DNA of 64,000 bases. Origin: Lytechinus pictus (lineage: Eukaryota). Position 1 is the first letter of the stretch. Every line of letters begins with the position of its first letter. Under the pieces are notes generated by a model. It searched no databases, was not told the DNA's origin, and saw only the letters and a program-made list of their open reading frames with translations. Shown here in pieces: positions 1 through 24,842 of the stretch. The stretch covers positions 19,470,001-19,534,000 of the forward strand of contig NC_087245.1 of the NCBI RefSeq assembly GCF_037042905.1, given 5' to 3'. Made by a program: the position numbers and the translations under genes.

Positions 1-894
1 GGGGAGTGACTTCTGCAACAGTTACGACAGGTGTCTCATCAGGAACGGCCTCCTCAACTGGAACTTCCTTTGATTCGGGAGTGATTGCGGAGATACCAAC
101 ATCAGGAACATCCTCGATGGGTTCTTGGGCTGGGAGAGTAACTTCTTCAGGCTTCTTGGTCACAGGTGCAATGGTTGCTTCCTGATCCTCTGAGACCTGA
201 GGAGCCTTCTCCACATCGATGACTGCACTATCATCAGTGACAGGTTTCTTCCTCTTCAGGATGGCTCTACCTCTTTTTGGTGACTTGATCTCTTCATCCT
301 CTTCCTCCACCGTGTCAAGGAATACACGCCTTTTATATTCAATATCAGGCTGATCCAGAGGTCGAACCTGAACTTTCAACTTTTTCTCTTTATCTTTCTT
401 CTTCTTCTTCTTCTTTTTTTTCTCTTTCTTCTCTGGTTCAGACTCCTTTTCATCATCATGAGGCAATTCTGGTTCCAAAATTGGCTCTCCCTCTAAATCT
501 TCCTCTGTAAGATCTTCATCTTCTTCTTCATCATCATCGTCATCAAACGGAGCACTTTCAGAAGGACCTTCATCAATTGTCACTGATACAGGCTCCTCTT
601 CTGGCCTATCTTCATCATCAGGAGTGTCTTCAGGTCTGGGAGCTTCCACCGGAACCTCAGCAGCTGGTGGGATATCATGAGGGCGCTTCTCTTGAACATC
701 TGGTCTTGCTTCCTCTGGAAGTGTTTTAGGAACCTCTGGTGCTTCAGGAGCTGGGATTTCAACTGTTACTTCAGGTAATTCCTCTGGTAGGGCTTCTTCA
801 GTTGGAACTTCAGATTTGGGTACTTCTTCCTTAGGCGCAACAACAACCTCCACAGCTTCAACTGTTACAACTTCTTCAGCCGCTGGAGTTGTCT
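1..894 (-). CDS. Titin-like exon (3'-truncated by window): acidic PEVK-like spacer with a poly-Lys tract
   Basis: CCTTACAG|AG (ETTPAAEEVVTVEAVEVVVAPKEEVP...), phase 1. The E/P/V-rich frame appears open to the window edge and is not in the ORF track. Confidence 0.88.
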
Positions 895-1670
895 CTGTAA
901 GGTTGAAGAAAGTTGGTAGGCCCAAGAAGAGTGAAAATGAACATCCAGCAGTAGAATGAAGATGAACATTCAATGCCGTGCATCAATGCTTTGATGGCAG
1001 ACTTGGCAGGCAAAATGCGACTCTTCTAATGATCATGCAACTGTTCCGTGATGATGCAATGGAATGATACTAAAACTAAAACAAGGTGCTTCATGCCGGA
1101 AAAAAATCTTGACAGTCCTCTGTCACAAGCACAAATGATTTGACATTGATTTAACATTCTTGTTGAGAATTACCCTAGTCGCCTGGTCTTGATCATACTT
1201 GGAATGCAGATCATTTCGAGCTGTAGTGAGGTCTGTGATCAATACTATCTTTAAAATATCTCGGGAGTCCTCTTTCATCTTTCTGGAGATACTGCTGCCC
1301 CCTACTTCTCCCGTTTATAATCTCATTATGAGTCCTTTTAATATTTTGGTTTTTGTTCTTTACTTTGGAATATTGGATGCTGTCAAAATAGTTTGTTTAA
1401 TGTTAGTGGTATGTATCAAACATGTTTTTTTATATTTTAATGTATTGAAATATCTGACTTCAAAATTGAGAATTGAAATATTCGTGTTTATCATCGCCGT
1501 TTATGCTTAACTTTTTGGTGTCCTTGCATAAACTTGTTCGATCTTTGTTTTGTTATTATAATTTCATTTAATTACAATGGTTTTGTTTAACTTTTGTTTA
1601 ATAGATTCAGACAATTAAAAAAAAAATGGGACAATTTTTAAGATCTATTCACAAATAAAAATTCTGCTGT

Positions 1671-1965
1671 AATAATAATAATAGTCGGTTCTTGTGTAGC
1701 GCATAACACATTATAAATAACGTCTCTATGCGCTTCCAAAGGACTTGGATATTATTACCCTGGCTTTAGCCCCGCAGCCCTTTATAGCGCTGTGGCATTT
1801 CAAAGAATAAATTCCTGCCAGGTACCCATTCACCTCACCTGGGTTGAGTGCAGCACAATGTGGATAAATTTCTTGCTGAAGGAAACTACGCCATGGCTGG
1901 GATTTGAACCCACGACCCTCTGTTTCAAAGTCTGGAGACTAATCCACTGGGCCACAACGCTCCAC
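1671..1965 (-). mobile_element. tRNA-derived SINE
   Basis: Minus strand: A box TGGCCCAGTGG, B box GGTTCAAATCC, central AACCCAGGTG...AATGGGTACC core, and a 3' AAGCGC...GCGCTA segment with a (TAT)n tail. Confidence 0.85.
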
Positions 1966-2319
1966 AGTAAAGGCAAAATATCACACTTGGGGGAGTAATC
2001 AACCCTGTCATACTGGAAAATTTGTTTTGAATGAGAAATGTATTTTTAAAAATGATTTTGAAAATCCCAACCGCCATTGTTTGTTGTCCCCTAAACGACA
2101 CACAACCATCACGAAGGACAACATGCACACTGCACAATATCTTTACCAACTTCATCAATTTCACATTATGTAACTTCTGGGGGAGCATATTGTCATAGAG
2201 GGTTCACAGTATATCATGCATTCTTTCTTGGGGACTGTACTCCATGGGAAACTTTCGTTTCCAGATGGAACCTGGGAGATAGTAATAGAAAAACAATGAC
2301 AATCCATGCACACATTTGA

Positions 2320-2825
2320 ATGCCATCGCTCTAGACAACATTGTACAACGCCTACTCAGCCTATTGTACGCGAGCAAATGGAAGGTTAAATGTCAAACAT
2401 TTGTGCCGTTGCACACGTACCGTCCATAATGTACCATTGCATGATCAGGAACAAGGTGACGTCACAATTAAAAATTATGATTCAATGCATTGCGCTTAGT
2501 AAGTGCAATACGCGTAGGTCTTACTGGCAAAATGCACATTGCTGTTGCAGATCAGATGTGCATTTGAAAAGATTTTCCTTTTGCTTTCAAAATTTTCTTT
2601 CTTGAAAAAATGATTATTGTTCGTATTTTCTCTAAATTCCGAGGCGTTGTACAACACAAATAGCGAATATTCTTATTCGTGCAATGGTGCAACATTTTGC
2701 ATTCAGTGAAAGAAAGAGACACTCTATTCAACTCGGCTAACGCATCGTTGAATAAAGCCTCTTTCTTTCACCTTTTGCCAAATCTTGAACCATCGCACTC
2801 ATGCCTCTTCGCTATCTGTATACTA
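2320..2825. repeat. CpG-rich interspersed repeat with hairpins (probable non-autonomous DNA element)
   Basis: TTGTACAACGCCT (2341) is inverted at 2642. A long imperfect stem 2679-2732 / 2747-2798 is centred on ATTCAACTCGGCTAACGCATCGTTGAAT. Confidence 0.55.
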
Positions 2826-2840
2826 TACCCTGAGACACAG

Positions 2841-3127
2841 AGGGCGGTATTCTAAAGACAGATTTAACTAAGACCACGGTCTAACTCTGTGCTATAATTA
2901 TGGGAAGCCAAAATTTAAAAAAAAAAAATTTTATATGTCATATTTCTTATATTTACTATTTTGTTTCCTAATGAGGAGAATACTTCAGTTATCATTCTCA
3001 GGCAATTATGAACAATTTGAGAGTCAAATGAGTTAATAAAGTGGATTTGTGCCCCAATTGGCCATCCATAGTTAAACCACAACTTAAAACCAGGATTTAA
3101 TTTAAACCATAGTACAGAATACGGGGT
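2841..3127. mobile_element. MITE-like element
   Basis: Ends GGGCGGTATTCT...TTTAA and TTAAA...AGAATACGGGG are imperfect inverted repeats around an AT-rich interior. Confidence 0.5.
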
Positions 3128-6100
3128 AGAGTACCCTTCTTGGGATCTCCATAGAATGGATGCCCTGTTTTAATAATGTCATGAAAAACATGAACACAGA
3201 TTGTGCTCATGTTCCCTCATGGGAAGAGGGACTATTTGCATGGATTGGCACTGTTCTTTTAGCTACTGTCCACCAAGTTACTATCAGGTAAAATTCCCCT
3301 TTCTCCAAAGGACAGACAGAAAGTACTCATTGAGTACATGACATCAAAAGTCAAGTTTGAGTTGATATTTCCTTTTCAGGTCCCGCCATCTTTAAGAAAG
3401 AGTTGACACGGTACTGTGAACTGTCAATGACAAACAGGTACATATGCTACATGATCAGACAAACACACACAATCACATTGTTGCATGCATAACAATCATA
3501 CACAGAAAACATCAAATGAACATTCACCATGCGCTATTCCCCAGACTAAACTCATTAACTTATTTTCTAATTACGGTCATGCATGAGAAGAAAAATGCTC
3601 TTTTTACTATCTATATCTATAAGAATAAATTAAAATCAACATGGATGGAGCTTTCTATTCAGATGCACCATAAAACAGAATAGACTACCGGTAGCTTTTC
3701 ATAGTCTATTTCTACTGTTTTACAAAAAGGGGAAGTATATGCGTGTAAGTAGAGGGTTGGCATGGGTGCTTTTTAGATCTTTTGGGGATTTACCAAAGAC
3801 GAAAACGAAGTAAACTTGATATAACAGAACTGCTCACCAAATACCCTTTTTTTGCAATTTTAAGAGCAAATAATCTTATTTTGGGGAGAATTTTGCTTTT
3901 TATTTCATTTTACAAGAGGATGCAGATCAGGGGAAATACCAGGGTGGTGCAGGAATGAAGATCAGAAATATGTGATAGACTTTACATAAAGGGAAAACTA
4001 GGCATTATAATGACTACATAGATACACACAAACAACAGAAAGCAGGCAAATTACAATGAAAATTGAAGTAAACAGTGTTTTTGTTATTTGTATAAAAGGA
4101 TATGAAAGAATACAAAATTTATACAAACAGTGGTCTTGGTAGACTGTTTTTTGATACAGTATGCATTATAAAATCCAGTAGAAACATACCTGGTTGTGAC
4201 TTTATATGAATACAATATTTTGAAATTTTAGAAAGAAATATTTGCATGTGAAAATTAAGCCAAAATTAAAGACCAAGCTTTATATGCAATACATAATCCA
4301 TTTTTCTCTTCCCAATACACCAACAAATATTTTGGTTTAGTAAACCTTTCCCAATCTTATTAATTACAATATTTGAAGCACCTATTTACAATAAAATTTT
4401 CAAATTAAATATCAAATTGAATTATATTTAGTCTATTGTTTGCAACATACCTATCTAACAAAAAGATATATATTCTATTGTATATGAATGCAGGAAGTAA
4501 TATGTGCAGTCTAGCTATAAGGCAAGTATTGCATGACCTATTGTCAATCGTAATTAATATCGATTTCATTTACCTCTTAGAAAATATAGACTGTTATACA
4601 ACTGATAGTACTATAGCATTCTAATTTTAGATAAGTAGTTCAGATTATATTTACAATCACCCTAAAATAAAAAAGAAGATTTGGAGTTGCATATCATTTT
4701 AAAATCATTATTTAATGTTTTGGGGTAAAATCTTCATATAAGCTGTGGTTATGAATTTTGAGTTGAAAAACAAAATTCAACATATCCTTTTATTTTCTTT
4801 TGGTTAGGCTTTATATAGTCTAGACTTCATTTTACATGTAGAACATAACGTAACATAAAAAAACAGTAACTAATTTTGAAATAAAATAAAAATAAGTCAG
4901 AACAGCAATGTGGTGAAAATGTAAAATGAATAACTAGTTACTCTTTCCATGATGATTCTCCCCTAATAATATAAAAACAAGACAACAGTTTTGGAAAGAA
5001 CAATACATAGACTTTGGAATGTAAATTACTTGGATGAGTAAAAGAATGGAAAGTTGTCATGTTAACATGAAAGTGATTGTGTACTAATGACTACTTGACT
5101 TCTAAATCAACTTGCCCAACAATAAATCTATTTAAAAACAAATACTGAGAACTAAAATGCACAGACGATCATAACAAAACGAGGATACATGCAGTGTAAA
5201 ACAAACTTTTAACATTCAGATTAACAAAGTATTGTTTCGCCAAGAAATATACCACAAATGCAAAACTTCTACATTTATGCAAACAAACACTAAACTGGAT
5301 ATATTGAAAAATTAAATTGAGATGTACATCATTAATATTTCACACATATTCTTTCTAAATATACAAAGTATATTGGTTACAAAAAGACATCTTATAATCC
5401 ATTAAAAAGTGCAATAAATCCTTGGATTATGTCCTGAATGATAATAATAATTTCTGGAAATGCACAATTTACAAGCTAAGTACATGCCATAAAAGCCACT
5501 AAACACTAACAACTGCAAGATATCACAATACAATATTCACTGTGTAAATACCCCTCACATAATTTCTTTCAAAAATGCATAGGATGATTTGGTCTGAATA
5601 TTACTTGTTTTGAGAAGGAAATGAAAAACATCACACGTTTTATCCATTAAAGTGGAAAAACACAACCAGTAACATTAAACTCATTAAACGCATAAAATAC
5701 ATGCAAGTAAAACTTCCTTATATGACTCCTTGATGAAGTTCATTATGTCAATTGAAAGAGAATTGTTAAATGCACAACTATTTTTATTCCTCAACAGGGA
5801 TGAGGTGCATTGACTGATATCATTCATCTATTGAGAACTTGATTCTTTCACATGCAAACAAGCAGAAATTTGAAAAATATAATTTCTCAAAAACATAAAA
5901 TAGATATGAAAAAAAAACCAATCAATTGATATGAGAAAATCCATGCACAAGTAGACGAAAGCATGCTAACTCATTCGTGCATCATATACAATAAAATATA
6001 TACTACGTATAATTTCTAATTCAAATTTAGAAAAAAAATATTTTCTTAAAAAAAAAATGTTACAAATTATTCAATTTGCCTCATAAATTAAGAAAAGTAT

Positions 6101-6879
6101 TTTTAAATATCCTACTCTCGGCACCAAAGGAATATGAATTAATGTAAAGGTACATGCATTTCTTGAGATACAAATCAATGTGCAATATTTTCAGGAAAGT
6201 TGAATACAAAACTGATGTATAAAAATGCAGCACTTTTGATACAGATTATTATGAATCTATAGTCCATCATTTCAGATGCATAAAAAAAGAAATAAATCCA
6301 AGTACAAAAGGTATTGGGTGTTAATACTGAATCTGTAAGTAATGCTTTGAGAGTCTTTTACAGACTAAATACTTAATTTTTACTTGACCCATATTTCATC
6401 AAGACTGAAAGAGAATTTTAAATGCTGTAAATAATTTTTTTTTTAATTATCTGAATACAGGTACTGGTACTTCTTAGGATACTACTTCAAGAGAAAAAGG
6501 GCACACTAACTTGCAAGAACATACAAAAACATTTCTCCTTTCTAAGAAATAAAAATGTTAAAATTCATCTCTTTTGACTGGTCCCGCTAAAATCTATTGC
6601 ACTTACATGCCCTCCTTGACAATGGAGTAGCACACATCAAGGCTCTTCAATTCATTAAGTCTTTATCTGCCTTGATCCACAAGATTGACAAAAATAACCA
6701 CTTTTGACATTAAAACAAGTACATGCAAACAGCACCCATCCATTGCAAAGTCAGCTGTTTAGAGCTAGAAGGATAGCATTGTATGCCCAAACAGTGAAAC
6801 AAGCCTTCTAGTTCCAAACCAAGTGACACAATATCGGGTTTTAATCCGTTACAAGAATCAACCAATTTAGTGCAGAAGG

Positions 6880-7010
6880 CTGAAGAGCATTTCATGAAGC
6901 AATCTGTAATGATTTCACTGATAATTGATGTAAGCTCATGAATTTGATCGGCTAAGAGAAAATTTGTCAGTGATATCACTCTCAGGGTGCTTCATGAAAC
7001 AGTCCCCTGG
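6880..7010. mobile_element. Short degenerate MITE-like element
   Basis: TTTCATGAAGCA (about 6890) is inverted as TGCTTCATGAAA (about 6988), with an inner TCACTGA/TCAGTGA pair. Confidence 0.4.
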
Positions 7011-7075
7011 TAATCCCCATATAAAGCCTATTGGAAACAGGGTTAAGCATTCCACATAACAAAAAGGTGGATGGA

Positions 7076-7239
7076 CTACAAGAACAAGACCACGTAACAC
7101 ATAGCAATGAATATAACGATGAAAGCTACGATGTCCCATTCCAGTATGTGTGCCAGGGATGCCATACCTTCTGGTTTCATTGCCTTGGTTTCTGGGGTAA
7201 CCTGGTCCTCTGCAACCTCCTGGGGTACAGCTTCAACCT
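7076..7239 (-). CDS. Composite exon: 72-nt internal exon (7168-7239) or read-through terminal exon ending in a transmembrane tail
   Basis: Strong acceptor CCCCTCTTACAG|AG and internal donor GAAG|GTATGG at 7168/7167. Read-through gives GMASLAHILEWDIVAFIVIFIAMCYVVLFL*. Confidence 0.8.
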
Positions 7240-7818
7240 CTGTAAGAGGGGAGGTTGAGAAAGAGAGGAAAAGAGTAAGGGGGTAGGAGGGAGACAAAGA
7301 AAATGAGTGGTAAAAAGAAATAGATGAAAGGGAGTGTTAAAGCAGAGAGATCCAAGACAGGACAAAGAAAGGGGTAGAATATTAAAATGTACAATGGAAG
7401 TCAGGAATCTTGAATCATCTTACAAATAACTATCATTCATCTATTATAGTTTCAGATTTAATGGAATATTTTATTCATAGATATTTACAATTTCCATGGT
7501 TAAATCAAATTTGCAGTTTGGGTAAGATCCTGCAATATGTTAGTCATTAATGGATACATAATCAGGGATAAGAATACATTTTGTCATTGACAGTGACTTA
7601 CTAACTATGACACAACTGTAAAGTCTGTGTCTAGTCTACAAAGCTGAAAAGTTGAATATCAGCAATACCTGCATGTGAGCTACAGTACTACCTTAAGGAT
7701 CTAGCAAAAAATAGAACATCTTGGGCTTTGCCAAACATTCAACATGATTGACAAGAGAGGAGACCCCCCAAAAAAAATATTATCATACCACTCACAAAAT
7801 TCTTTGAAACACACTCAC

Positions 7819-8118
7819 CCTTTTCTGTTGGTAGATGAACCACCACCTTCTCAGTGGGTTCACCGACACCAAACTGGTTGGAGGCACTGACCCGGAAGGC
7901 ATACTCCTCCCCAGGAGTCAGATCAGCGATGGTAAAGACGGGTGCCTTGAGGGTCTCGGCTATCCTCTGCCATGACTTGGTGGCACTGTCCAGCATCTCA
8001 ACGATGTAGGAGGACACCTCCTGGCCTTTGTCCTCCATGATAGGTGTCTGCCAGGTGATGGTGGTGGAGGTGGGAGTTACCTGGGTTGGTTCCAGCTTCC
8101 GAGGTTTGTCTGGGATGT
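7819..8118 (-). CDS. Fibronectin type III domain exon
   Basis: TTGACAG|AC (DIPDKPRKL...TITWQTP...SYIVEM...W...IADLTPGEEYAFRVSASNQFGVGEP), donor G|GTGAGT. Titin-type Fn3 signature. Confidence 0.93.
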
Positions 8119-9257
8119 CTGTCAAGGAGGGTGAGGGGAGGGGATGAAAGAAAGTGATAATGTCAAAAGTTCAGAACATAAAATTTATATTATTGATATA
8201 CCTAGGGTGCAAGGAAGCATGCTGCCAAAGTGAAACTGCAAGGTGGTTGCAAAGAAGCAACAGTTTGAAAATTAAGATAATTTAATAAATGAATGATAAC
8301 GGAAGCACCAAGCTTTAGGAGGTGGAAGGGGCATGGTTTCAGAGCTTGGATCGCCATCAGAATTTGGAAATGGAGCAGTTTTAGTACCTTGTCCTGGCAT
8401 CTGATGTTGAATGGATGTGATATCAGCACTTGCCAGGATATTTTCCAAGAAATGCTGCTGGTTCATATACTGGTCATAAAACTGTTAATACTGGGAATCG
8501 TTACACCCACCTCATTTCTTCTCATCAATTTGAACCATACACAGCATATGAATTAAAACAAGTGTCCTACCTAATTTCAAATCAATAAATATAATTCCAT
8601 ATGAAAGAGGAAATCAATGCATATTTGACAACAATACTCATGTGATTAATAGTCTAAACTCCCACTAAGGAGAAAATGTTAACATTAACCATAGCGTATT
8701 AAAGACCCCTACACTTGAATAACTACATAGAATAACATATAATTTAATTATTTGAGATTCTAATAACCCCCAATGTTGCAAGTAATGGCGAATGATGGCA
8801 AATATAAATTCATTTGTACAGTATGTATTCTTTTAATTTTTGTTTTGTTTTTAAAGAGAGAAATACAGAATCTGTTTAAAGAAAAATAACAAGTACATTG
8901 TTGCATCATGACTAACATAGATCGAAAAAGAGTTTCTCTTACCTGCTGAGTTTTATGGAAAAGGAAAGTAAATATGGTGCAAAGTTCATGACAGAAGCAA
9001 ATTGAAAAAGAAATTGTAATTTGGCATTAAAAGCAATTAATTTTGGAACCTTGTGCTGAATTCATTGCAGTGAAAGCAATTCAGGTTTAGCTTTGTTGAA
9101 TGACCACTCTTTAGCATAAAAAACAAGCTGGAGGAAAGTTTTGAGAAAAGGAATGAACCAAACTCTTCATAAATGTCAGATCTTGATTCTTAAGGGATAT
9201 GAATGCAAAACAATCAAGCTTCTATTTTTTTTTTTTGGGGGGGGTCAAGTCATGTAC

Positions 9258-9536
9258 CTATAACTGTAATGCTGACTTGGAGTTCATCTCGAGCAAGCTC
9301 GTTCTCAACGACAACCACATAGTCACCAGCGTCCTCCATCTGGGCTTTAGAGATGACCAGCTGGGTCGTTTCTCGGGTTGTTTCAGTGGTGATTCTTTCA
9401 GTGGTTTCCACGACGACTGAGTTTTTGTACCAGGTGACAGATGGCTGAGGGAACCCCTCGATACGGATATCAACAGTGATTGATTCACCACGCTTGACAG
9501 ACACACTCTTGGGCCCCTCCATAATTCGGGCGGGGA
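9258..9536 (-). CDS. Titin-like exon: Ig domain
   Basis: TCAACAG|TC (VPARIMEGPKSVSVKRGESITVDIRIEGFPQPSVTWYKN...DAGDYVVVVENELA), donor G|GTACAT. Confidence 0.92.
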   Translation of the reverse strand, partial: SPPELWRGPRVCLSSVVNQSLLISVSRGSLSHLSPGTKTQSSWKPLKESPLKQPEKRPSWSSLKPRWRTLVTMWLSLRTSLLEMNSKSALQL

Positions 9537-12500
9537 CTGTTGATTCGAGTTGATCGGGAGGGAATTGTGTTTGGGCGTGTGGGGAGAGGATAAAAAAGGA
9601 TGAGGGAGAAATACAATGGATTATGAATGTGCAGCTGATTACATGAGGCCTTTTAGAAGTAATGATTTCCAATGCTTGATAGGACTTTGGGAATGAAGCA
9701 AGTATGCTGTTGGGTTGTGCGTAAGCACTATTAGTCAGCTTTTTTTCCCCTATGAACTTTTGCAAAAGGCATTTTCAGCTTCAGGACATAACTAATTAAA
9801 GAAAAGGGTTGCTAAACTTAAAGTACAGATTTCAACTACTAGCCATGATCTGAGGATGAAGGTTGAAGCATCAGACACCTTGTCAATAGAGAGAGAGCCA
9901 TGTCTTTTTTCCAGAAATCTGGCAAGCGGCTTTTCATTACCAATCCTCACACTTCTTCATAGACAAAACAATGAGGAATACAGGAAAGCCGCTATGCAAA
10001 GATGCAGAGCCTTTTTATAGAGGGATTCCTTTAAAAAAACCTGACACAAAATTTTGACATGAGACCTAAGAACATTTAGCCAACAACCTTTTTTTTCTAT
10101 TTTTAACTATGCAAGGGCATTTTTTATTTTTGGACACAGCAATTATTTAAGGAGAAAGCAATTTAAATAAATTCAACAATTTTATAGAGCCAATTACAAA
10201 AGTTCGAGTGATTTTTACCATGTTTTTGTACAACAGAGCTTTCGTGGAAATATAATGGAGAAGCAAGTTAAGATAGGAGAGTCCTAGCTTTTTCAGATGA
10301 AAATTGGAAATGCTTCAGCTATTTGATTGCATATAATCTTTCAGGTAATTTGTCAAACACATCTCATGTCAGCTCTGCGACATAACATGATGGGCTTATT
10401 TTGAACATGAAAAACTATATTTGTCAATAAATGCACAACTTGGATGTTTAATCAATATGATTATCCAGACTGAATTACATGCCATCTTTCTTTAAAAGGT
10501 GTCATGGTCAAGTACAAGATACTGAATGGAGTAAAACAATAATTATACATGAATAACTTCAATCAATTCTGTATTCAAATTTGTATATTTCAAATTATCA
10601 ATATATGTTAAGTCAAACAAAAATCACTGTCATGAAATAATAAAATGGTATTAATGCAAAATGACTAAAGGACATGATATTACAGGAGTTAAACATGATA
10701 AAACATTGTTAGTAATGAAGCATGGGCAAGCATACAATTTAGCATAACTCATCAGAACATTTGGCACATACATCACATACACATCTCCAATTTACAAACA
10801 TATTAGCGAAAGTTGATTGTTAAAAAATGTACCATGCAGAGTTCTATCCTTTCTCACAACTTGGCAAAAACAGACACAAAACAACATCCAACCAACCAAA
10901 TAAAGAATACATACATATATCCATTAATAGAGTGAAAATCCCAAACAATTCTTTGCAATGAGTTAGTATATTCCATGAATACTTCCAAGGTGTTAAGAAT
11001 GATGAATGAATGAAAGGGACCCTTGCCATAAAAAACAATCAAGATAACATCTAAAATATATTATTAGTCATGATTACTGTAACAAAAACAATATGATTTG
11101 TAACAATTATAGGAGACGACAAATAAAAACAGCCAGGATATTATTAAAGGTATCTGTTTTTCCCTGACAATTATTTATTCACCTATCTCACCACTTTAAT
11201 GTACAACTTTACAGAACTTTTTTATATACAAACTTACAAATAAACCAATATATTGTGATTCCTTAATAAATCATCTTAAATCCAGTTCTACAGAATATAA
11301 TTTTTCTAGATTATATATTTCATTTGCTATATAAAGCAGTACATTCTATAATTTCATATCAGTATAGAAATTGAAAATGTGAATCTTTCTCACATTTAGT
11401 AAAAAAAAGAGTATATAGAAAATGTTTCATGAGCTGTCTTAACTATGAAAGAGATGTATTACATTAACTTTGTCTATTTCAATACTATGACAAATAATTG
11501 TTCTAAATATTATAAAATAACATGCTTGAGTTTGCTTCTGACAGATATGAAAGGTTTACATGGTTATCAAACATGCTAACATAAAATAATTTCTTACCAG
11601 GAATGTGCTTTCGAGAATACAAAACAATTTGTCAAAAGAAATTTGGCAATTTCAAGCATCCATATAAAAAGAAACTAAGACATGTACATGTAAAAAGTAA
11701 ATAAAATGAGTTTAAGATAAGAAAAAACTGGTAGGATCTGTTTATTAATGTACATCACCTTTTGCAAATATGTGCATATTTTCAAATAGCTTCTCCTTTT
11801 AAATCTACATTTCATTAATAACATACAACATAATTTTCCAAATGGTACATGAACTAAAAATGTCAATGATACGCAATCACTTTCAAATACAGTAAAGCTT
11901 TAGAATTTTAATAATTGTATGTATAAATATAAGATAATTCTATGTTTGGAAATCAAGGTCTTTGTATTTGATAAAGCTAGGCATTAAGAAATGAAAGTAC
12001 TAATACTATCAAGCATCTATTCACAATATAGAATTGTTTACCATGGAAATTGTTATGCAACCTTAGAAAATATCAGAAAGATGAACTAAATTAAACCCCA
12101 TTATAAATCAATCCTTCACAATCTTCACAAAGATTCGCAATGGAAAGTTTCCTTTAAATCAATGATCATCAACTGACATGAAGATGAAAGGATAGGCAAT
12201 CAATTAAAAGTTATTCATGCATATCTGGTTCATAGAATAGACCTAAATAGATCATACTGAAATAACATTCAAAGAAATGATATAAACATTACAAATTAAG
12301 AATGATTTGACTATTGATGAGCAAACTAGACAGCTGAAACCTAGGGCAACTGACAATAATCATGCATGTTTAATTATGTTATTAAAAAAAGGAATCTAAA
12401 ACAAATAATTGTGTAGGACAGTAGGATTTCTTTGAAAATATCATTTGTGAAATTTAGAGTTGTGGTATAAGGCCAGTAAAAGTTGTAGAAGTAACAATTT

Positions 12501-12971
12501 CAAGCAATTCCAAGACTATAAGTTCAAATTGGCCTACAGTAAATTCCAAGCATGCAAAAGGAAAAAGCATCATTTAAAAAAAATTGTATTACAATAAATG
12601 AGGTACAACTGTGACAGATATTTCCATAACCCTAGAATGATCATACAATTTTTATTATGGTAGGAAAATGAATTCCTGAACAGAAAAAACAAACAAAAAC
12701 TTTTGCGTGCATTAGGAAAAAAGTTAACAGAATACATCAGATGGAGATTACATTTACAATGAAATGTACAATAATAAAATTTAAACTTTCATTTTTTGCA
12801 CAAAAGTGAGTTTCTCTTTCAGGTAGTTATCAGAAGTCAGTTGTAACAATGGATGAATTATGATTTACTTCCTATGCACACGAAGGCTTTGGTTTGCTTC
12901 AACAATGCTTTAATTTTCATGGTTAGATATTGCTTTAATTTGGAAAAGAGGCATTCCATAGTGCTCTTTCT

Positions 12972-13030
12972 TTAAAGGTAGATGCGATACACGCTGTTCT
13001 TATGTTCCACTATGTGATGATGCAACGTGC
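12972..13030 (-). CDS. Candidate alternative terminal exon (GTLHHHIVEHKNSVYRIYL*)
   Basis: Pyrimidine-rich acceptor TGTTTGCCCCCATCCTGATCCTTAACACAG|GC in phase 1, TAA at 12972-12974, then about 3 kb of UTR-like sequence with minus-strand AATAAA at 12651, 11741 and 11174. Confidence 0.45.
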
Positions 13031-14556: not shown

Positions 14557-14649
14557 CTCTTGTCTGCCATATAAATTTTTTTTTTAAAGTTTTGGAAAAT
14601 TTTCTCTTGTCTGCCATATAAATTTTTTTTTTAAGTTTTGGAAAATTTT
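14557..14649. repeat. Intronic tandem duplication, about 47-bp unit x2
   Basis: CTCTTGTCTGCCATATAAA-T(n)-AAGTTTTGGAAAATTTT occurs twice head to tail. Confidence 0.85.
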
Positions 14650-15984
14650 CCACTTATTTTTCCATAAAAGCATTGTCAAAATTGACTTCTCTATATTACA
14701 GACATTGCCCCGAAATTCTTAATAGTAAATATGCCAACTACTGAATAAGTTGAAAAAATTGACAGATCATAAGAAAAATCAGTATCCTAAAAAGTATGCT
14801 CATACAGAAAAGAAAGTGCAATCCAGTTTATTGTAAAGAATGACCAATTAAACACAAGGTTATTCAAAGAAATTTAAAATATAATATAAGTACAGTAAAG
14901 CTTGCGCAGATACAAACATCACCAAATTTTATGAATTGAAAAAAAAACATTTAAAAACATAAATGAGAAAGCATATTTGATTGTGAAATTGAGCATTGTA
15001 TGCCAATTTTGATGAGCAAAGTTTTAAGCAGTTTTCAGTATAAAAGGAAGCAAATGCATACAAGTATCTCTGCTGCGAATCCATAAGTCAGCTAACGAAT
15101 CATTGTGCATTTTTTTCAGTTTCAGAACAAAGAACCGAACAAAACCCAAACCAAAAAAGATGGAGAAAACCAGCAGTCTTAAGTAGCTTATGAAATGTCA
15201 GCTGCACAATGAAATGCATCCAAAAGCAAATTTGTTTTATACATTGCTTATAAACCTTATGGTTTGCTCTGGATAACCCTTGGTTACATTCACAATAATA
15301 TAGCATTAAGAGATTTGATACAAGAAGCGAAGAGGTAAAACATTTGTTAAAATGTGCTTAAATAGGAGATCATCCTTTAGCTGAAATGCCTTGCATCATA
15401 TTTTGAATATGGAATATTAATTCATCACTTGATAACCAATTTTTGTATTTTATGTCAATACAATTAAAAAAGGGACTTTTTAAATACTCTTCTGGATATA
15501 AGCATACATTTCAGAAGGAAGCAATTTTCAAACTTGTCCCTCATTGATTAAAATAAATCCAAGCAAATGTACAAAATCAACACATTTCTTTGAGAGTGGG
15601 ATATTGAATTTGTTTGTATAATCTATACCTAGAGTGAATTGTAGATTACATGTCTGGGAAATGTAGCATAGAATAAGCTATTACTACATATAGGAATGGT
15701 GAGAGCTATTAGTTATATTTCAGGAATGAGGATTCGCTAATCGAGGGAATCTAGTATGATGAAAGGCATTTAAGGTCAGGTTGTGTCTCACAAGGTAAGA
15801 CTATTCCACACAAAACCACCAACAGGAAGTGAAACCATGCATGTTAAAGGTGAAAGGTTACAGTCCACAAGGAAAGGTGAGGTGCAACGAGAAACTTTAT
15901 TAGTTTAGTCTTCGATGGGCAAAGCCACAAAGCAGTATGGTAGTGCATGCAGGAGAACAAGTAAGAAGAGAATCAGGGATTTAC

Positions 15985-16779
15985 CTTCCAAGATCAGTTC
16001 TGCCGTTGTTGTTGCTTCGCCGATCTCGTTGATGGCCTTGCAGGTGTAGTTAGCGACGTCATCCATGGTGGTGTTGCGGATGAGGAGTGTGCACATTCCC
16101 TGTTCGTCGTAATCGATAGAAATGCGAGGTCCGAGTTTCAGCTCCACACCATTCTTGAACCACCTAATTTCTGGCATGGGTCTGCCCACTACTTTGCAGA
16201 AGAAGTTGATGCTATCGCCTTCTACTGCTGTGAGTGTCTTCATGTCGATGATGAATTTCGGTGGGTGCTTCTCTGGTCGCTTCTTGTGGGCTGCCTGGAG
16301 GAACAGATCAGCTTTAGACACTGCTGATCCTGCCTTGTTCGATGCCTTGCAGGCATATTCAGCATCATCATCAGCTTTGACTTCATCAATTATCAGGGAA
16401 CCAATTCCTTCATCCTCTGCAAATTCAAATTTCACATGCTTATCGTCTGGCTTGATCTCCTTGCCATTGCGATACCAGTGCAGTGTAGGCATGGGGATGC
16501 CGCTCACCTGGACATCAAACCTGGCAGGATGACCCTTTATAATTTCCAAGTCCACCATGTCTTCAACAAACTTAGGTGCTTCATACACTTCAGTGATTTC
16601 TCTCTGAGTGGGTTCCACTTGGAACTGAGGCATGACTTCAGGTGCAGCTTCGGTTGGTTTCTTCTCTATTGGCACGACTTGTTCCTCAACAACGGCAGCT
16701 TCTTGCTTGGGGACCGTCTCAAGAGGTTTGTCAACCTCCATGGTAGCCTTGGCTTCAACCTTGACTGGAGCCATTTTAC
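15985..16779 (-). CDS. Titin-like exon: spacer plus two Ig domains
   Basis: ATTTAG|GT to GAAG|GTAAAT. APKFVEDM...DDAEYACKASNKAG and PPKFIIDM...DVANYTCKAINEIG. 795 nt, phase 1-1. Confidence 0.93.
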
Positions 16780-17199
16780 CTAAATAATGGGAAAAAATTT
16801 AACAGGTACATCAGACATTGTGTGTACCACCATGTTTCTAAGCTCCAGTGCAGCATCACAAAATAGTTACATGAAAATATCTTAACTGATCAGATATTTC
16901 TCATGGAAATTGGGATCAAATGATGATGAAATTGTACAGAAACCCCACTTCTACCATTGGTCTTATTTACCAAGTGTATTTATATATTTTTGGAGGAGAT
17001 TGTTAATCACCAGCCAAATTCTATATCAGGGTTCTGATTCTAAGCAAGTAAAAAGAAGAATACCATTTTATAAAAAGAGCATAAATTTATTTTTTATCAT
17101 CTTGAACTTAAAGCCCTGTACATAAGTTTAACTAAAAATATGGAATCCAATCTATAATCACTTGTTTCTTGAAAGTCATATTAAGAATATTAATCCTAC

Positions 17200-17500
17200 C
17201 TGGTACTTCCACAAACAGTTCTGATTCTGTGGAGGCAACGCCCACCGGATTGACTGCTCGGACGACATATTGTCCCTCGTCCATACTCTCCACATCATGG
17301 ATGGTCAGTACGCATACTCCGTCCGGCCTGTGTTCAGTCTGGTAGTGAGAGTCTGGCTCAATGACTTTGTCATCTACAAACCATTGGACCTCTGGTCTCG
17401 GTTGACCTTCGACCTTGCATGTGACCTCCGCCGTTTTGCCTGGCTTCAGTTCAGCTGTGGTCAAAGGCTGTGTGAAGACTGGAGCTTTCTGCTCAGGTAA
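17200..17500 (-). CDS. Titin-like exon: Ig domain
   Basis: TTAACAG|TTA (LPEQKAPVFTQPL...VTCKVEGQPRPEVQWFVDD...DEGQYVVRAVNPVG), donor G|GTAGGA. Confidence 0.92.
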
Positions 17501-17914
17501 CTGTTAAAATATAAAAGATAAAAGAAGAGTAATCTTTTGTTCATTGACTGATTGATTAAAAGCAATTTCAAGGATTGCATTTATGTATATCAGAATTTTA
17601 AGATCCCCCCAAAGAAAAAAGGGATAAAAACCATGAGATTATCTTATAAAAAGCTCTCACTTTCAGCAGTATTCCTTCCAAATGATTGAATGCATAATCC
17701 CATATAACTGGAAGGATGACACAAATATTGGTCTAAGAACAAAACAAACTTCTAATAGTAATTCAGCTAGAGCACGATTGATCAGTTCTTCATTGTTCCT
17801 TTAAGAACTCTTGTCAACAAAATGTGGAGGAGATATTTTAATGGCAGTTCTTAGCTTTTAGGAATATCATGAGCAAAGTGAAGAATCTTTCTCAGTAATC
17901 ATGACAATAGCTAC

Positions 17915-18106
17915 CTCTGTTGGCGCAAGTGTGACCTCCACTTTAGTTGGTGTGACCTCGACAGGCATGACCACTTCCTGTTTCAGAGGTTTCTCCTCCA
18001 TCTTCTTGGTGACTTCCACAATGACCTCCTCGGGATGTTTCTCAAGGTCCTCCAGTTGGATCTCAATCTGGACTTCATCATGGACCTCAGGCACAGCAGC
18101 TTCAGC
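17915..18106 (-). CDS. Titin-like exon: PEVK-like spacer
   Basis: TGTGCAG|GCT (AEAAVPEVHDE...VTLAPTE), donor GAG|GTAGCT. Phase 0-0. Confidence 0.83.
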
Positions 18107-18482
18107 CTGCACAAGAGATATTTATAAGTGCGCAAACAGTGAGCTATTGCCAAACTGTCAGAACAGGTTTTTTTTCAATGACACTATGCATGTAAACCTT
18201 GCTTAGGCTTACCCAGTTTCTGAAGCCAATGATGAAGCATTTGTAGCAAAATGTATTGACAAGAAAGGATCAGATTGGAAAATTCAAGATTGATCACATA
18301 ACAAGCAAGGATGTCATTAATCACTTGAACAGCAATGAAGTATGTTAATTGCTGGAAAGGGGTATTTGGGTGAATCTTGTGTAATGGATAAGTTTTAGGA
18401 AATTGGACAAAGTTAAATGGTGAGATTACAAAAACAGGTTTAAATTCTGTGTTCTTTGTCCATATTCTTGTCAACACCTCAC

Positions 18483-18688
18483 CTCATCCAACTCCTTCTC
18501 CTCAACATCTGTTTCCAAGGCTTCCTCTGAGGTAATCGATGGAGCTTCACTGATGCTGGCAATTTCTAAGTCCTTGCCCCGGACCTCTAGGGTAATTTCC
18601 ATCGGTCCTTGGGGTTGGGCCTCCAAGGGTATGCCCTTCTCGGCCTGGACTAGGATTGCTGGCTTGTCCTTCTTCACTTCAGATGGTT
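18483..18688 (-). CDS. Titin-like exon: acidic spacer
   Basis: TGGACAG|AA (EPSEVKKDKPAIL...EKELDE), donor GAG|GTGAGG. Phase 1-0. Confidence 0.85.
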
Positions 18689-19155
18689 CTGTCCAAGGAA
18701 ATTGTAGACAGGTTTAATGGTCCAATGAATTTGGACAATGGGTAGATATACATGTGACATTACGCTGATATAGAAAATACTGAATATCCATTCTATTTGT
18801 TTTTATTACTATTGCTCCTGTATGCACATTAGGTCAACATTAAACCTTACATCAAACCTAAAATTAACCCTATGTCTTATTTTCACCTAATTCTGATCCG
18901 AAAATCCTATTATGAACTTGAAAAACCAAGAGTACAAGTAAAAGGCACAACACTGAAATAAAAGAGGATAGATATATGCCATTAGCACACTGGAAAAGGG
19001 AAAGTGTGTTTCCTCTGTGTTAGCCCTAATGATGAGAACGATAAACTTCAGTTATCTGCTTTAAGCCAGCAGGATTGCATTGAATCCACCTTCCTACAAA
19101 AACCCCTCTCTGTCTATCCCATGATCGAGTCAACTACTTAATAACAAACTCTTAC

Positions 19156-19359
19156 CTTCATCTACAATGACATCAGCACGGCAAGATACAATACCAAAGG
19201 GATTGACAGCCTTGCATAGGTAGTCTGCATCGTCACCAGGTATGGCCTCTGAGATGACAAGAGATGCGTTGCCTTCGGTGTCAGACATAATGGTGTGGCG
19301 AGGACTAGGCTGCAGAACCTTGCCGTCTCTGTACCAGGTGACTTCAGGGGTAGGCTTGC
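19156..19359 (-). CDS. Titin-like exon: C-terminal part of an Ig domain
   Basis: AACCAG|GC (GKPTPEVTWYRDGKVLQPSPRHTIMSDTEGNASLVISEAIPGDDADYLCKAVNPFGIVSCRADVIVDE), donor G|GTAAGA. Absent from the ORF track. Confidence 0.92.
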
Positions 19360-19853
19360 CTGGTTTTTAATGGCAGGTAGAGACAGACATGAATGTTAAG
19401 ATCATATTATAAATGACCATTTACATTATAAGATTTAAAAAAGACTATAAGACCCATTGCTTAAGACATGGCTGGTCAGATCAAAATTCAGTTGAAAGTA
19501 TGTTAACAATTTTTTTTTTTCAACTTTAAATGAACATAGGTTTGTTTTAAATTGTTAGAATGTACAGGTAAACTAAAAGTAGAAGAGATTTAATGTCAAT
19601 TTTAAATTGCAAAGGTTGTCATATTCATATAAACATATACAGTAGTTAACTAAAGTAAGAAGCACCATATCGATATTTCAAGGGAATAATAAAAAGAGTG
19701 AATAATTTTTAAAATTGGAATGAAACAAAGTTTAGAGGTTCCAAAATTATTGCAACACAATCAGAAAGTTACAATTCTAAATTTGTTCAGTAAGATTATG
19801 TATAACGATCTCGGGGAAAGGATGGCAAAGTTCACCCTTTTTAGGGAACCTAC

Positions 19854-20051
19854 CAGCAACTTTGACTCTCAAGTGTGCTGTTTCTCCTGGTTTGACTTCA
19901 ACATCCTGGACAGGCATGACGAAAGTTGGAGGAACACCTTCCTCCTCGAGTTCGTCCACACCTTCAAAGTCAATGCTGACCAGATCGCGACTTTGTGGAC
20001 CTTCGACGATGGCGCTGCTATCAACAGAGACAATGGAAATCTCTTCCGCTT
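19854..20051 (-). CDS. Titin-like exon: spacer plus N-terminal part of an Ig domain
   Basis: GTTTAG|AA (EAEEISIV...PPTFVMPVQDVEVKPGETAHLRVKVA), donor G|GTAGGT. Confidence 0.88.
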
Positions 20052-21529: not shown

Positions 21530-21826
21530 CAGACGTTAGAGTCAGCTCGGCACCACACATGGTACGTCCGACCTGATTCTCAGCCCAGCAAGTGTAGGTA
21601 CCTAGGAGTTCGGGCGTGGCCTGACGGACCACGACCCAATTCTTTCCTTCTTTGTCCTGACCGATCTCGATCAGGTTAGACGGCTTGATCATCTTCTCCC
21701 CATGGAACCAAGTGATCTCGGGCATGGGGCGCCCGGTCACCACGCACTCGAAATGCGCCATGTCGCCCTGGGTGACTGTTGCGGTTTGGATGGGTTCAAT
21801 GAACTTTGGAGGTTCTGGCTCCTTGC
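21530..21826 (-). CDS. Titin-like exon: Ig domain
   Basis: CAAATAG|GC (RKEPEPPKFIEPI...FECVVTGRPMPEITWFHG...LGTYTCWAENQVG), donor G|GTAAGT. 297 nt. Confidence 0.92.
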
Positions 21827-22875
21827 CTATTTGCCAACCGAATGAAAATGGAAACTATGTGTAACTATTCAGACCTTTCTGAATATGAGAGGTTTCATGC
21901 ATAACAGAGTATATTCCATATTCTCTTGTAGTCATTGTGCTTCAAACCAATCACTCAAAAACTATGAGTTTGACAACATTGAAACATTAAGAGGATTATC
22001 CAAGAATTGGCTAAAAGTTCATAAAAAACTCTTTTAATTGTCTTTGCATTGCCACAATAATTTTTACCCTCCTTATGATAATCCTGCAGAAAATAATTTA
22101 TTAGACACGTCTTTAATCAATTTAATCCAAAATGAATTCAAATCATATATTTGATTTGGGGTTGTGATTAATTCATGCCCACAATTTTTTTCCTGCTTTG
22201 TGTTTAAAAAATATTTGCCTTCAAATGACAAGATATTGCATATTCCTTTAATAACCATCATAAAATGTGTTCTCAAAAATCTTAATCTTAATAAAAATTG
22301 AGAACTTGTATGAATTACACAATAATGTTTTCAAAGTATGTATCGTTTAGGTATTCAAGTAATGCATATCTTTTGTCTTCAAAGCCCTTGGATATTCCTC
22401 TCATGTTTCTTAGCTTTTTAGAGATGTCATACACAAGTGAAATCAAGCCACATGCAAAATGCTAAATAAATGCTTGTAATAGGTCAGTATATATATTGGA
22501 ATACAAAGCCAAGTGATAAATGTTTTCAAATGGAAAATCACTATTAAACTGAGAAGCATTGTTGTGTTTCCAACATAAAAGAAATGAATGTACCTTTACT
22601 CCACAATTTTTTTTATAATTTTTTTTTAAATAACTGAAAAAGGGTGATATGAGAATTTCAAAGGGAGATATTTTCTATTCAAAGAAAGCTGTGTTTAATC
22701 TTTATCATTTGTGATATTTTTTTTAATATATGTATATTTTAAATCCAATTGAATTCAATCAGTGGATAATTCAAAATATTCATTTTATGAGGTCATTATT
22801 TACGTCAAAAAAATTTGAAGATTCACAAGTTTCCTTACACAGTTCCTTCAGAATACAAGTCAAAGCAACGTCATT

Positions 22876-23180
22876 TCAAATGTGTTTATTCATATTTTTC
22901 AACAAATTTTTCAAATCACCTGCACTGATATGGTCAACGTCTGATGAGTATTCCTCATCTTGTGGCGTTGTGGGTAATATGACATCATTGTGCATGCAAT
23001 TGTTGAAGGAGGGGCGGTTGCAAGCATGCATAAAGGAGGGAGTTGAGATGGTGATGGGGGATCCAGACCAGGTACGAATCTTGTGAACGTGCCAGCCCCC
23101 GCGGTTGCCGGCGGGGGTGAACATGGGTGATGACATCGACACTACAAAACCTGTGATGGGAACAGAGGGGTTGGCTACTT
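22876..23180 (-). CDS. Candidate alternative terminal exon (about 101 aa, QVANPSVPITGF...LLKNMNKHI*)
   Basis: Acceptor CATTTGGTAG|AA in phase 1 matches the upstream donor and enters the open frame of the 124-aa ORF. Locally GC/CpG-rich; no domain recognised. Confidence 0.45.
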
Positions 23181-24519
23181 CTACCAAATGACAAACATAC
23201 ACAGACATGGAAATACATATATTTACAAACACAACTGAATACATAAACATTCTATTTTTTTTTACAACAGAATATCCTTGTTGCTATATAATACTTAAAA
23301 TATTGTGCTATAATAATCATAAATGAAATATATAAATCACAATGAGGTGCAGCACTCATATTAAAATTTAGTTTCCAGTAATATGTTTGGCAAAAATAAA
23401 GCCTTTGAATATTCAAAGAAATTTATGATGAAATAATGAATACAGAGATTAATATCAAACAGTAAAAAAAATCAGTCTCCCTACATTTTGTAGGTATATA
23501 GGAACATATTTCAAGCTTACTTCTGAATCTATTAAAAAACATTTAAATTGTATTCATACTTAGTTTTTAGACAATATATAAAGATTTATTTGTCCCCTGG
23601 CAATTTATTGCCTATTCTTCAGCTGGTATACAATGTACATCAAAAGGCACTTACTGAACATATGATGTTAAATACACAATGTATGACATTAATAAATGTA
23701 CTGGATATTCATGGTGAAGTGCAGTGGTGTTAGATTAAATGCAACTTACTACATATCCATTATAATGAAGATAAGCAGGAAATAAATACAGAAAATAAAC
23801 ACGTTAGTAAACTAGAAAGCATCATTATAACGTTTTGCAAGTACATGTAACAATCTAATACCAGTGGTTAGTCGAGCTAAAGGCTATACAGGAACTTAGT
23901 ATAATAGATGCATGAAACAACGTTTACTGACATATAAGTTACAAACTCATATTCACAACCATACAGATGCATACAACTCAGTGGGGTAACACACATGTGA
24001 TTCAAACACCTCCCATAATCAAACAGTCATGCACATCATCAAAATGAACATTCTCCACAAATCAAACCTTCATCACATTCCTAAATTATTTGAATAAATG
24101 TCATGAGTTTGCACATGTATTATAAAATTCAAATTATATTCCTTAAAATGACAAAGAGTTAGATGCACATGTACAGAAGATGGAAGTTAATTGAATCATA
24201 TACCTACATGTATGGGTAGCAGAGATGGTTTTAAAAGAGTAAAAATCCTCACACATTTGTAAACTTATTGTTTAAGATGGTTCCCACATATGAACATGTG
24301 TAATGCCAACCAATGGATATGAGCAACTCAAATGCATATGTGTGAAATATGAAAGATTAAAATCTGAATTAAAAAGAAATAATAATCTCAGATGGTATAA
24401 GAATAATTGATGTAACCATGAAATTTGGTTGGTAGTGTGGATCCCAAGCCCAATGTCAATGATGAATGATTGAATCCTAAATACTAAGATGGACCAGGAC
24501 CTGGTCCTAGTCTACTCAC

Positions 24520-24842
24520 GTGTGACCTCCAGAGACACAGATGCCACAGCCTTGCCCTCCTTGTTGGTTGCCACGATTCGGTACTTCCCTTCATCGTCGG
24601 GCTCAATATCGGTCAGCTCTAGTGTTAGAATGTAAAGATGGACATCGGCGTACATGCTCATGCGACGGCGAGGCGTCTCTTCGAGGGGTTGGTCATCTTT
24701 GAACCATTGGATCTGAGGTCTGGGTGCAGCAATGAGGCGGAACTCAAAAGTGACTTTCTCCTTGCCGGCACTGACTACCTGGCTCTTGGCGACTGTCATG
24801 AAAGCTGGTTTGATTCCTTCACCTTCTTCAATGGTTGATTCC
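24520..24842 (-). CDS. Titin-like exon: Ig domain
   Basis: ATTTAG|G (RESTIEEGEGIKPAF...QWFKDD...DEGKYRIVATNKEG...LEVT), donor C|GTGAGT. Phase 2-1. Confidence 0.92.

Follow-up and report, generated by a model that had tools for sequence, protein, structure and literature searches.

Alternative C-terminal endings of a sea urchin titin/connectin gene: two short forms, one with a conserved tail that is a likely membrane anchor, and a likely full-length form

Titin-family giants are known as soluble proteins of the filaments, and it is partner proteins that connect them to membranes. Early stops are already known among them, as in Novex-3 and kettin. In Drosophila, Sallimus yields the short isoform kettin through an early alternative stop and shares with the urchin system described here an Ig-PEVK spring with Fn3 at its end (PMC9886281). 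It differs in its five C-terminal Fn domains and in a C-terminus placed at the myosin filament; the excerpted account mentions no membrane tail, and the gene, unlike the urchin locus, lacks an Fn3/kinase half (PMC9886281). Vertebrate titin resembles the urchin gene in that one gene gives a full-length protein together with short forms, Novex-3 (N-terminal, with its own last exon) and Cronos (internal start), and no membrane anchor is described in the excerpt of the source (PMC4720518). In the obscurin-ank1.5 system a giant Ig protein likewise links myofibrils to the sarcoplasmic reticulum, but obscurin needs a separate membrane protein, whereas the urchin anchor would be built into the giant protein itself (PMC2172649). 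SLMAP shares with the urchin gene a tail anchor selected by alternative splicing, its hydrophobicity deciding the target membrane; SLMAP, however, is not an Ig/PEVK spring and picks between two anchors, not between an anchor and a filament-binding half (PMC2712456). A built-in tail anchor has not been reported for titins in the literature searched. If true, contractile filaments would be tied to a membrane by a novel type of elastic connection, a conserved isoform that carries the tail anchor itself.

The gene studied here is the titin/connectin gene on the minus strand of Lytechinus pictus NC_087245.1. All coordinates are positions in the window, the whole 64,000-nt stretch analysed, in which the gene runs from high to low numbers. 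From 5' to 3' the domain order is a putative spectrin-like part, Ig, PEVK-like, SH3, Ig, Fn3 and, in the likely continuation, a series of about 86 further Fn3 and a kinase, and multi-kb exons of E/P/V/K-rich repeats are present. Some 50 Ig matches lie upstream of 7.2 kb, the six Ig ORFs examined are all I-set by Pfam, and Pfam also finds SH3, Ig and terminal Fn3 domains, some of the parts expected of a Connectitin/Sls-type N-terminal half. Spectrin repeats gave only sub-threshold Pfam matches, in three of four upstream ORFs, one of which has DUF7799 above cut-off. A second candidate tail anchor lies upstream, beyond the window at about +79.9 kb, where it would close a spectrin-Ig form. To our knowledge, TTN itself has neither an SH3 nor a spectrin part. 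The vertebrate spectrin repeats sit in the neighbouring SESTD1/CCDC141 (PMC12198301).

Transcript evidence was drawn from six of 21 listed runs, covering six studies and two species, and the splice joints carry the CT..AC ends of the minus strand. Five of the six are contigs labelled 'RNA?' or '?', from which ends, strand and level are not readable; no listed source is annotated as RNA, and RNA origin was taken from the spliced joints and from one raw, stranded RNA run (X19). The latter is shallow, with one or two reads per joint and no cover of the distal anchor UTR or the 13 kb UTR, and X9 has no cover at 7002-7668; these uncovered parts were not scored as absence.

The exons can be followed from the SH3 exon (27260..27509; Pfam SH3_1, E 6e-13), the query that retrieved the crinoid orthologue XP_033111500.1 (P0152), a titin-like RefSeq protein of 7754 aa from the feather star Anneissia japonica, to which the exon is 58% identical. 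The two genes are colinear exon by exon, at 42-67% on Ig, SH3 and Fn3, and the first exon of the crinoid model corresponds to the one close to +74.3 kb in window coordinates. The next Ig exon (24520..24842; I-set, joints, 61% to crinoid residues 6894-7000) has a phase-1 donor that either takes or skips a 231-nt exon at 22920..23150. A sequence-only reading of this DNA had proposed a ladder of at least four alternative C-termini and counted this exon as a novel tail. It is an internal, in-frame cassette, spliced on both sides in four of four runs, and its GT donor at 22919, with the onward splice to 21826, rules out a terminal exon. The skipping joint 24519->21826 occurs in one of the four (X15), and the exon is optional in transcripts. 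It has no Pfam match and no usable Atlas match. The ladder here has three rungs, not four.

Beyond the cassette lie an Ig exon (21530..21826; I-set, joints, a match in the crinoid protein) and five exons within 17200..20051 (20051-19854, 19359-19156, 18688-18483, 18106-17915 and 17500-17200), linked by joints and encoding two Ig domains and acidic linkers. Two of their junctions (18483/18106 and 17915/17500) are phase 0, so phase 1 does not hold for all junctions within 1-24842. The two-Ig exon (15985..16779; Pfam, joints, 47% to crinoid residues 7254-7515) is a branch point, its donor at 15984 joining either 13030 or 9536. The onward path runs through an Ig exon (9258..9536; 42% to the crinoid protein; joint 15985->9536 in four of six runs) and an Fn3 exon (7819..8118; Pfam fn3; joint 7819->7239 in five of six), the only Fn3 detected 5' of the long PEVK-like/Fn3 half, to a 72-nt linker exon (7168..7239) with a dual-use donor, AG|GTATG; an X5 contig ends exactly at 7168. 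Other parts of the proposed ladder held: each of the four candidate sites shows AG at its acceptor or GT at its donor, and all are entered in phase 1. Among the window exons mapped, no gaps exceed the two introns singled out for their length, 895-7167 (6273 nt) and 9537-15984 (6448 nt), and both have long transcribed cover, in keeping with UTR-like DNA. Among the joints listed, none belongs to a candidate 90-nt cassette near 8480-8390 or to a hydrophobic read-through past donor 15984.

Two short endings are seen in the transcripts, and the outcome that would have overturned the sequence-only proposal, a single C-terminal path in transcript data, did not occur. Joint 15985->13030, present in all six runs and two species (in X19 by one read), leads to a genuine alternative last exon whose coding part (12972..13030) adds TLHHHIVEHKNSVYRIYL and a stop, a soluble tail of 18 residues. 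Its likely 3' UTR, 11200..12971 with an approximate end, is placed by contigs (X1 covers 11227-13029), by X15 depth (44-84 in 11340-13340 vs 2-9 in 13341-15341) and by hexamers near its end (ATTAAA at 11200, AATAAA at 11179). The second ending reads through donor 7167 into MASLAHILEWDIVAFIVIFIAMCYVVLFL and a stop (7076..7167), a predicted tail anchor. Spliced contigs cross the donor into this tail in two of six runs, from both species (X1 to 7082, X6 to 6570), and a variant at 7081 in X15 is synonymous. The likely 3' UTR of this form (4140..7075, end approximate) is covered in X6 and X9 as well and closes with contig ends from two studies at 4137 (X1) and 4182 (X15), neither of which is preceded by an AATAAA in the last 40 nt; depth drops to 0-3 in 3336-4002. 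In X19, sense depth is 1.3-2.5 at 6004-7337 and at most 0.45 in the flanks (3336-6003 and 7338-9338).

The crinoid protein ends, after the same SH3-Ig-Fn3 series, in a homologous tail (14/33 identical, E 2e-10). The alignment score of 85 compares with a maximum of 56 in shuffles, none of 100,000 reaching 85, and among 4626 ORF ends across 464 kb the urchin tail ranks first (91 vs 37 for the runner-up). Positions kept in both tails include G-M, L-A, L-E-W-D and A-x-C-Y. No other segment of the crinoid protein is as strongly hydrophobic as its tail (hydropathy 2.67; next segment 1.69), which lies at the very end with no basic residue after it. The urchin gene and the crinoid protein share SH3, seven Ig, Fn3 and the hydrophobic tail; the crinoid model has no counterpart of the cassette, of one Ig (17500) or of the 13 kb tail. 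Conservation here means one crinoid gene model, an automatic one whose record carries no comment on the tail, and none of 282 other proteins compared has such a tail. With read-through contigs in both species and the same tail in a crinoid, the membrane ending drawn from the letters proves real as an ending.

How is the ending chosen? The account we favour, and hold to be probable, is a titin/connectin gene with two short endings, one soluble and one with the conserved hydrophobic likely anchor, together with a likely full-length Fn3/kinase form. For the endings at 13 kb and 7.1 kb the evidence supports a choice made through alternative 3' end processing, which probably extends to the long form. 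Splicing would compete with transcript cleavage and poly(A) addition near 11.2 kb and near 4.1 kb, and use of donor 7167 to reach the acidic/poly-Lys exon at 1..894, where the long part would start, would give the long form. Past 894 this spans about 140 kb, with PEVK-like exons, Ig, the Fn3 series and the kinase near -130 kb. The onward splice is likely, and with it the upstream half and the Fn3/kinase half would share one transcript. In X15, the linker depth of 145 roughly equals the sum of anchor UTR (~88) and exon 894 (~46).

Alternatively, the locus may hold tandem transcription units, one that ends at 13 or 7.1 kb and, downstream, an Fn3/kinase half with a Cronos-like promoter of its own, in which case the continuation would be no alternative C-terminus. 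An internal promoter is described for vertebrate TTN in the excerpted source (PMC4720518), nothing follows the tail in the crinoid model, and joint 7168->894 is absent among the joints listed. In X5, moreover, depth is 89 on the linker exon, about 6 on exon 894 and almost nil on the read-through, a mismatch that leaves the main onward path from the linker in that run unexplained. Exon 894, however, is entered through a phase-1 acceptor and none of its 297 window codons encodes Met, an X15 contig begins at 896, the branch-in point for an upstream exon ending AAG, the linker donor is canonical, and it is precisely there that the X5 contig breaks. Promoter and splice routes could also coexist, and we regard separate units as unlikely.

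The hydropathy of the L. pictus tail averages 2.84 over 19 aa, a value reached by none of 148 control read-through ends of Ig/Fn3 ORFs (highest 2.64); seven of these reach at least 2.0, and hydrophobicity by itself is therefore weak evidence. By sequence, the tail has the form of a tail-anchored protein, a lone hydrophobic segment at the extreme C-terminus with the stop immediately after the helix. The KASH peptide of nesprins comprises some 30 lumenal residues after the membrane helix. A nesprin/KASH identity was rejected on the position of the stop and on the lack of a KASH match in a Pfam search that admitted E values as high as 10. A resemblance to SERCA-regulating micropeptides gained no support, since Pfam and PDB return only chance-level matches at that cut-off, and in the Atlas there were only hits at 0.77. 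We know of no sequence relation between SLMAP and the urchin tail. Among proteins of at most 5000 aa, a size limit that weakens both blanks, the tail as query found none (three candidates, none scored) and homologue searches found no echinoderm orthologue (best identity 41%). From the high hydrophobicity and the lack of tail charge, an ER/SR-type membrane is the predicted target under mammalian rules (PMC5450235). Under tail-anchor rules, insertion would be post-translational; the Ig-PEVK chain would stay cytosolic and tether filaments to that membrane.

It is conceivable, if distinctly improbable, that the tail bears no load. It would then be a helix for oligomerisation or for partnering within the membrane, or would only localise an SH3 signalling scaffold. 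Polar and small residues are kept before and within the helix beyond an anchor's needs, and a single helix without a lumenal part may hold poorly under pull. Yet, chance-level hits aside, the Pfam and PDB searches point to no known membrane-peptide family, and the G-M may be conserved because it encodes the splice donor.

The sequence-only reading in full, with four true ends and the 13 kb tail as a PDZ ligand docking the spring on a scaffold, is very unlikely. The 13 kb tail is a transcribed ending spliced in two species, as it had claimed, and its last three residues, I-Y-L, fit what we take to be the class II PDZ pattern; but 348 of 2230 (16%) minus-strand ORF ends of the locus fit it too, which leaves the PDZ label unsupported, the tail is missing from the crinoid model, and the 22.9 kb exon is internal. 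Beyond this common three-residue pattern nothing supports scaffold docking, and what sets the 13 kb form apart is most likely just its length, as with kettin or Novex-3. That the short ends are functionless leaky intronic polyadenylation or pre-mRNA is scarcely credible and largely refuted by the tail kept in the crinoid: X15 does have intronic contigs (depth 6-13) and AT-rich introns yield hydrophobic read-through by chance, but the UTRs are covered 5-10 times more deeply than background introns and acceptor 13030 is spliced in two species.

Whether the I-band and A-band halves of titin were split or joined has been left open among three scenarios (PMC12198301), a question that the urchin locus informs. 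One deuterostome locus gives Sls-like short forms and, probably, also a long form of the titin type, and 11.6 Mb away the genome keeps a separate twitchin-like gene with N-terminal Ig, Ig-Fn-Fn repeats and a kinase, which together argue against a simple fusion of sls with that twitchin. A fusion in which an sls gene was joined to the genome's twitchin as downstream half was considered and rejected, as the Ig-Fn-Fn pattern sits in a separate locus (C1:31.02-31.14 Mb). Judged by domain layout, the studied gene does not qualify as the twitchin orthologue; it has no regular Ig-Fn3 super-repeats, Fn3 alone being detected between roughly -57.6 and -109 kb. More tentatively, and with somewhat less than even confidence, echinoderm titin may be a modular gene for self-anchoring tethers, with two separate tail anchors (at 7.1 kb and the +79.9 kb candidate), an internal restart between them and an Fn3/kinase form, so that cells choose a membrane or a thick-filament end, the 7.1 kb switch predating the split of crinoids from other echinoderms and marking where Sls-type titins end. 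The kinase exon has twitchin as its top PDB match (E 1e-18), with MLCK4 and DAPK almost equal.

The locus is titin/connectin, and the window covers the middle part of one very large minus-strand gene (contig of 44.3 Mb, genome of 812 Mb). Its colinearity with a crinoid protein indicates an echinoderm source. Exons at 1-27.5 kb encode one SH3, eight I-set Ig and one Fn3 domain. Upstream, PEVK-like repeat exons, further Ig domains and ORFs with weak spectrin-repeat matches continue for ~155 kb past the window, and the Ig matches above 7.2 kb total about 50. The ~140 kb downstream hold further PEVK-like exons, ~28 Ig and ~86 Fn3 matches and one kinase, whose top PDB match, twitchin, is only narrowly ahead of MLCK4 and DAPK. 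At 11.6 Mb from the locus there is a separate, twitchin-like gene carrying Ig-Fn-Fn repeats (contig G000:C1, 31.02-31.145 Mb; DNA pieces L041-L053); its kinase exon is without the usual APE context and has YASPE after DFG. Giant exons of ~1900, 3650 and 3570 codons (33367-39222, 45182-56188 and 59081-64000) contain 105-, 201- and 210-nt tandem units with embedded Ig domains. No Ig was detected in the long Fn3 series of the downstream pieces L006-L011 (-57.6 to -109 kb), inside which near-identical three-exon repeats occur at -60.8 to -67 kb. An ORF past the kinase (L016, -151.5 to -151.9 kb) ends in a hydrophobic stretch that may be another tail or chance.

Where can the product of such a gene end? 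The sequence-only reading proposed a ladder of four C-termini: a novel tail at 22.9 kb, a PDZ-like tail at 13 kb, a membrane anchor at 7.1 kb and continuation into the acidic/poly-Lys exon 894. Three of these paths stand, two of them shown and one likely, but the 22.9 kb element is a cassette exon. Six of 21 listed runs, from six studies, were compared with the window: X19 (raw stranded RNA), X1 and X15 from organism A, and X5, X6 and X9 from its close relative, organism B. Among the indexed holders, none is on record as RNA. X1, X15, X5, X6 and X9 are contigs, which are uninformative on transcript ends or levels; because joints with CT..AC ends sit at predicted introns, these five sets contain spliced cDNA. 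Short interspersed repeats at 1700-3100 have very high RNA depth in 4/4 runs examined there, and an element at ~32550-32770 resembles them. Acceptor choice near 17500 differs by 12 nt, X9 lying further in (joint 17488-17915) and X15 at 17500.

The cassette (23150-22920, minus strand, 231 nt, in phase 1 at both ends) is spliced on both sides, with joints 24519->23150 and 22920->21826 present in 4/4 runs. Its GT donor lies 41 nt ahead of the stop previously taken as the terminus, and the exon is an optional 77-residue insert separating two Ig domains. It has no match in Pfam or Atlas and is absent from P0152 (XP_033111500.1), a titin-like protein model of the crinoid Anneissia japonica. X15 also has a cassette-skipping joint (contig depth 50 vs 2.4). 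The insert is mostly left out in X15 (organism A) and retained in X5, X6 and X9 (organism B), a pattern that may reflect either tissue or species.

At 13 kb, the alternative last exon is real, but the PDZ role assigned to it is unsupported, the pattern being common to 348 of 2230 control ORF ends. Donor 15984 is spliced to acceptor 13030 in 6/6 runs (in X19 by a single read) and to acceptor 9536 in 4/6. Contigs run from 13029 down to ~11.2-11.4 kb, where ATTAAA (11200) and AATAAA (11179) are found, and X15 depth is 44-84 in this downstream cover vs 2-9 in the preceding intron. The exon codes TLHHHIVEHKNSVYRIYL and then a stop, with loss of the last Ig and Fn3. The crinoid model P0152 has no counterpart of this tail, and the form is read, by analogy, as a truncation of the kettin/Novex-3 type.

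The main result is a conserved, expressed and predicted tail-anchored titin isoform, generated at 7.1 kb. The 72-nt linker exon (7239-7168, minus strand) ends at an AG|GTATG donor; when this is unused, the frame extends into MASLAHILEWDIVAFIVIFIAMCYVVLFL and then a stop. One X1 contig has the Fn3 exon spliced to 7239-7082 and one X6 contig has it spliced to 7239-6570, so that splicing and read-through are real in both species. Read-through cover extends to 4137 (X1) or 4182 (X15) and then falls to 0-3. Sense reads of X19 in the tail/UTR region are confined to 6004-7337, X9 has UTR cover at 5010-5883 and none at the tail itself, and X5 read-through is near zero. A poly(A) site near 4.1 kb is only weakly hinted at, since the 40 nt upstream of each contig end (4137 and 4182) contain no AATAAA; TATAAA occurs at 4206. 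A possible 90-nt phase-1 cassette at ~8390-8480, between Ig and Fn3 exons, has no joint among those listed.

Among 148 control Ig/Fn3 ORF ends of the locus, none reaches the tail's hydropathy of 2.84, and hydrophobicity by itself is not decisive because seven reach 2.0 or more. Conservation at the sequence level settles the tail as real. A search with the SH3 exon found P0152, which is colinear with the window exon by exon (42-67% across SH3, Ig and Fn3) and closes, past its Fn3, in a tail with 14/33 identities to that at 7.1 kb (E 2e-10). No shuffle out of 100,000 matched the alignment score of 85 (the highest gave 56), and among 4626 ORF ends the 7.1 kb tail is the top match to the crinoid tail. 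The donor sequence encodes Gly-Met, and this pair is conserved in the crinoid tail, suggesting an old, shared dual-use donor. P0152 alone of 283 proteins fetched has such a tail; the hemichordate models end too early to judge. In the crinoid protein, the anchor is the sole strongly hydrophobic segment (hydropathy 2.67, next 1.69). Since it lacks a basic tail, an ER/SR-type membrane is the predicted target under mammalian rules (PMC5450235); nuclear envelope or plasma membrane are other possible targets.

Published work describes early alternative stops in Sls/kettin (PMC9886281), the Novex-3 early stop and Cronos internal start of titin (PMC4720518), alternative tail anchors in SLMAP (PMC2712456) and the connection of obscurin to the SR via ank1.5 (PMC2172649). 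PMC12198301 leaves the split-or-fusion history open, and a word search of its main text finds zero occurrences of "transmembrane", "membrane" or "echinoderm". Literature searches, with most subscription journals outside their coverage, listed no report of a membrane-anchored titin; the crinoid tail sequence already sits in RefSeq without comment.

A second candidate tail-anchor last exon lies upstream on the minus strand (piece L022:5762-5893, ~window +79.8-79.9 kb), within a 7.3-kb intron. It has a phase-1 acceptor and 43 codons, with a hydrophobic stretch (hydropathy 2.48) at the end and one lysine near the end, and would end a spectrin-Ig short form. An acceptor-plus-tail scan of 365 kb gives four sense-strand matches, including those at +79.9 and 7.1 kb, and one on the opposite strand, so chance matches do arise. 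P0152 starts in the exon that follows the 7.3-kb intron, which fits an internal start or a mere model break. A candidate Met-only first exon is seen at L022:~2455 and L022:~362, the P0152 start lying in the next exon.

Continuation into exon 894 (1-894) is likely on indirect signs. An X15 contig begins at 896, where an upstream exon with AAG at its end would join the acceptor, the end of one X5 contig falls exactly at 7168, and exon 894 is in phase 1 with no Met within the window. The joint 7168->894 is not among the 15 joints listed for the four runs compared over exon 894 (78 others; repeats at 1.7-3.1 kb crowd the listing). It is possible that the downstream half begins from a separate start. 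X5 depth drops from 89 on the linker exon to about 6 on exon 894, which counts against the long form. As X5 read-through is almost none as well, the bulk of its transcripts is unaccounted for, and its donor at 7168 may have another acceptor.

Most likely, cleavage/polyadenylation and splicing would compete in the two long introns. The products would be a soluble short spring, a spring closing in Ig-Fn3-anchor, and a long form carrying an Fn3 rod plus kinase, which by analogy would bind thick filaments. The Rbfox motif TGCATG has 57 sense-strand copies vs 22 on the opposite strand, an excess that hints at muscle-type splicing control.
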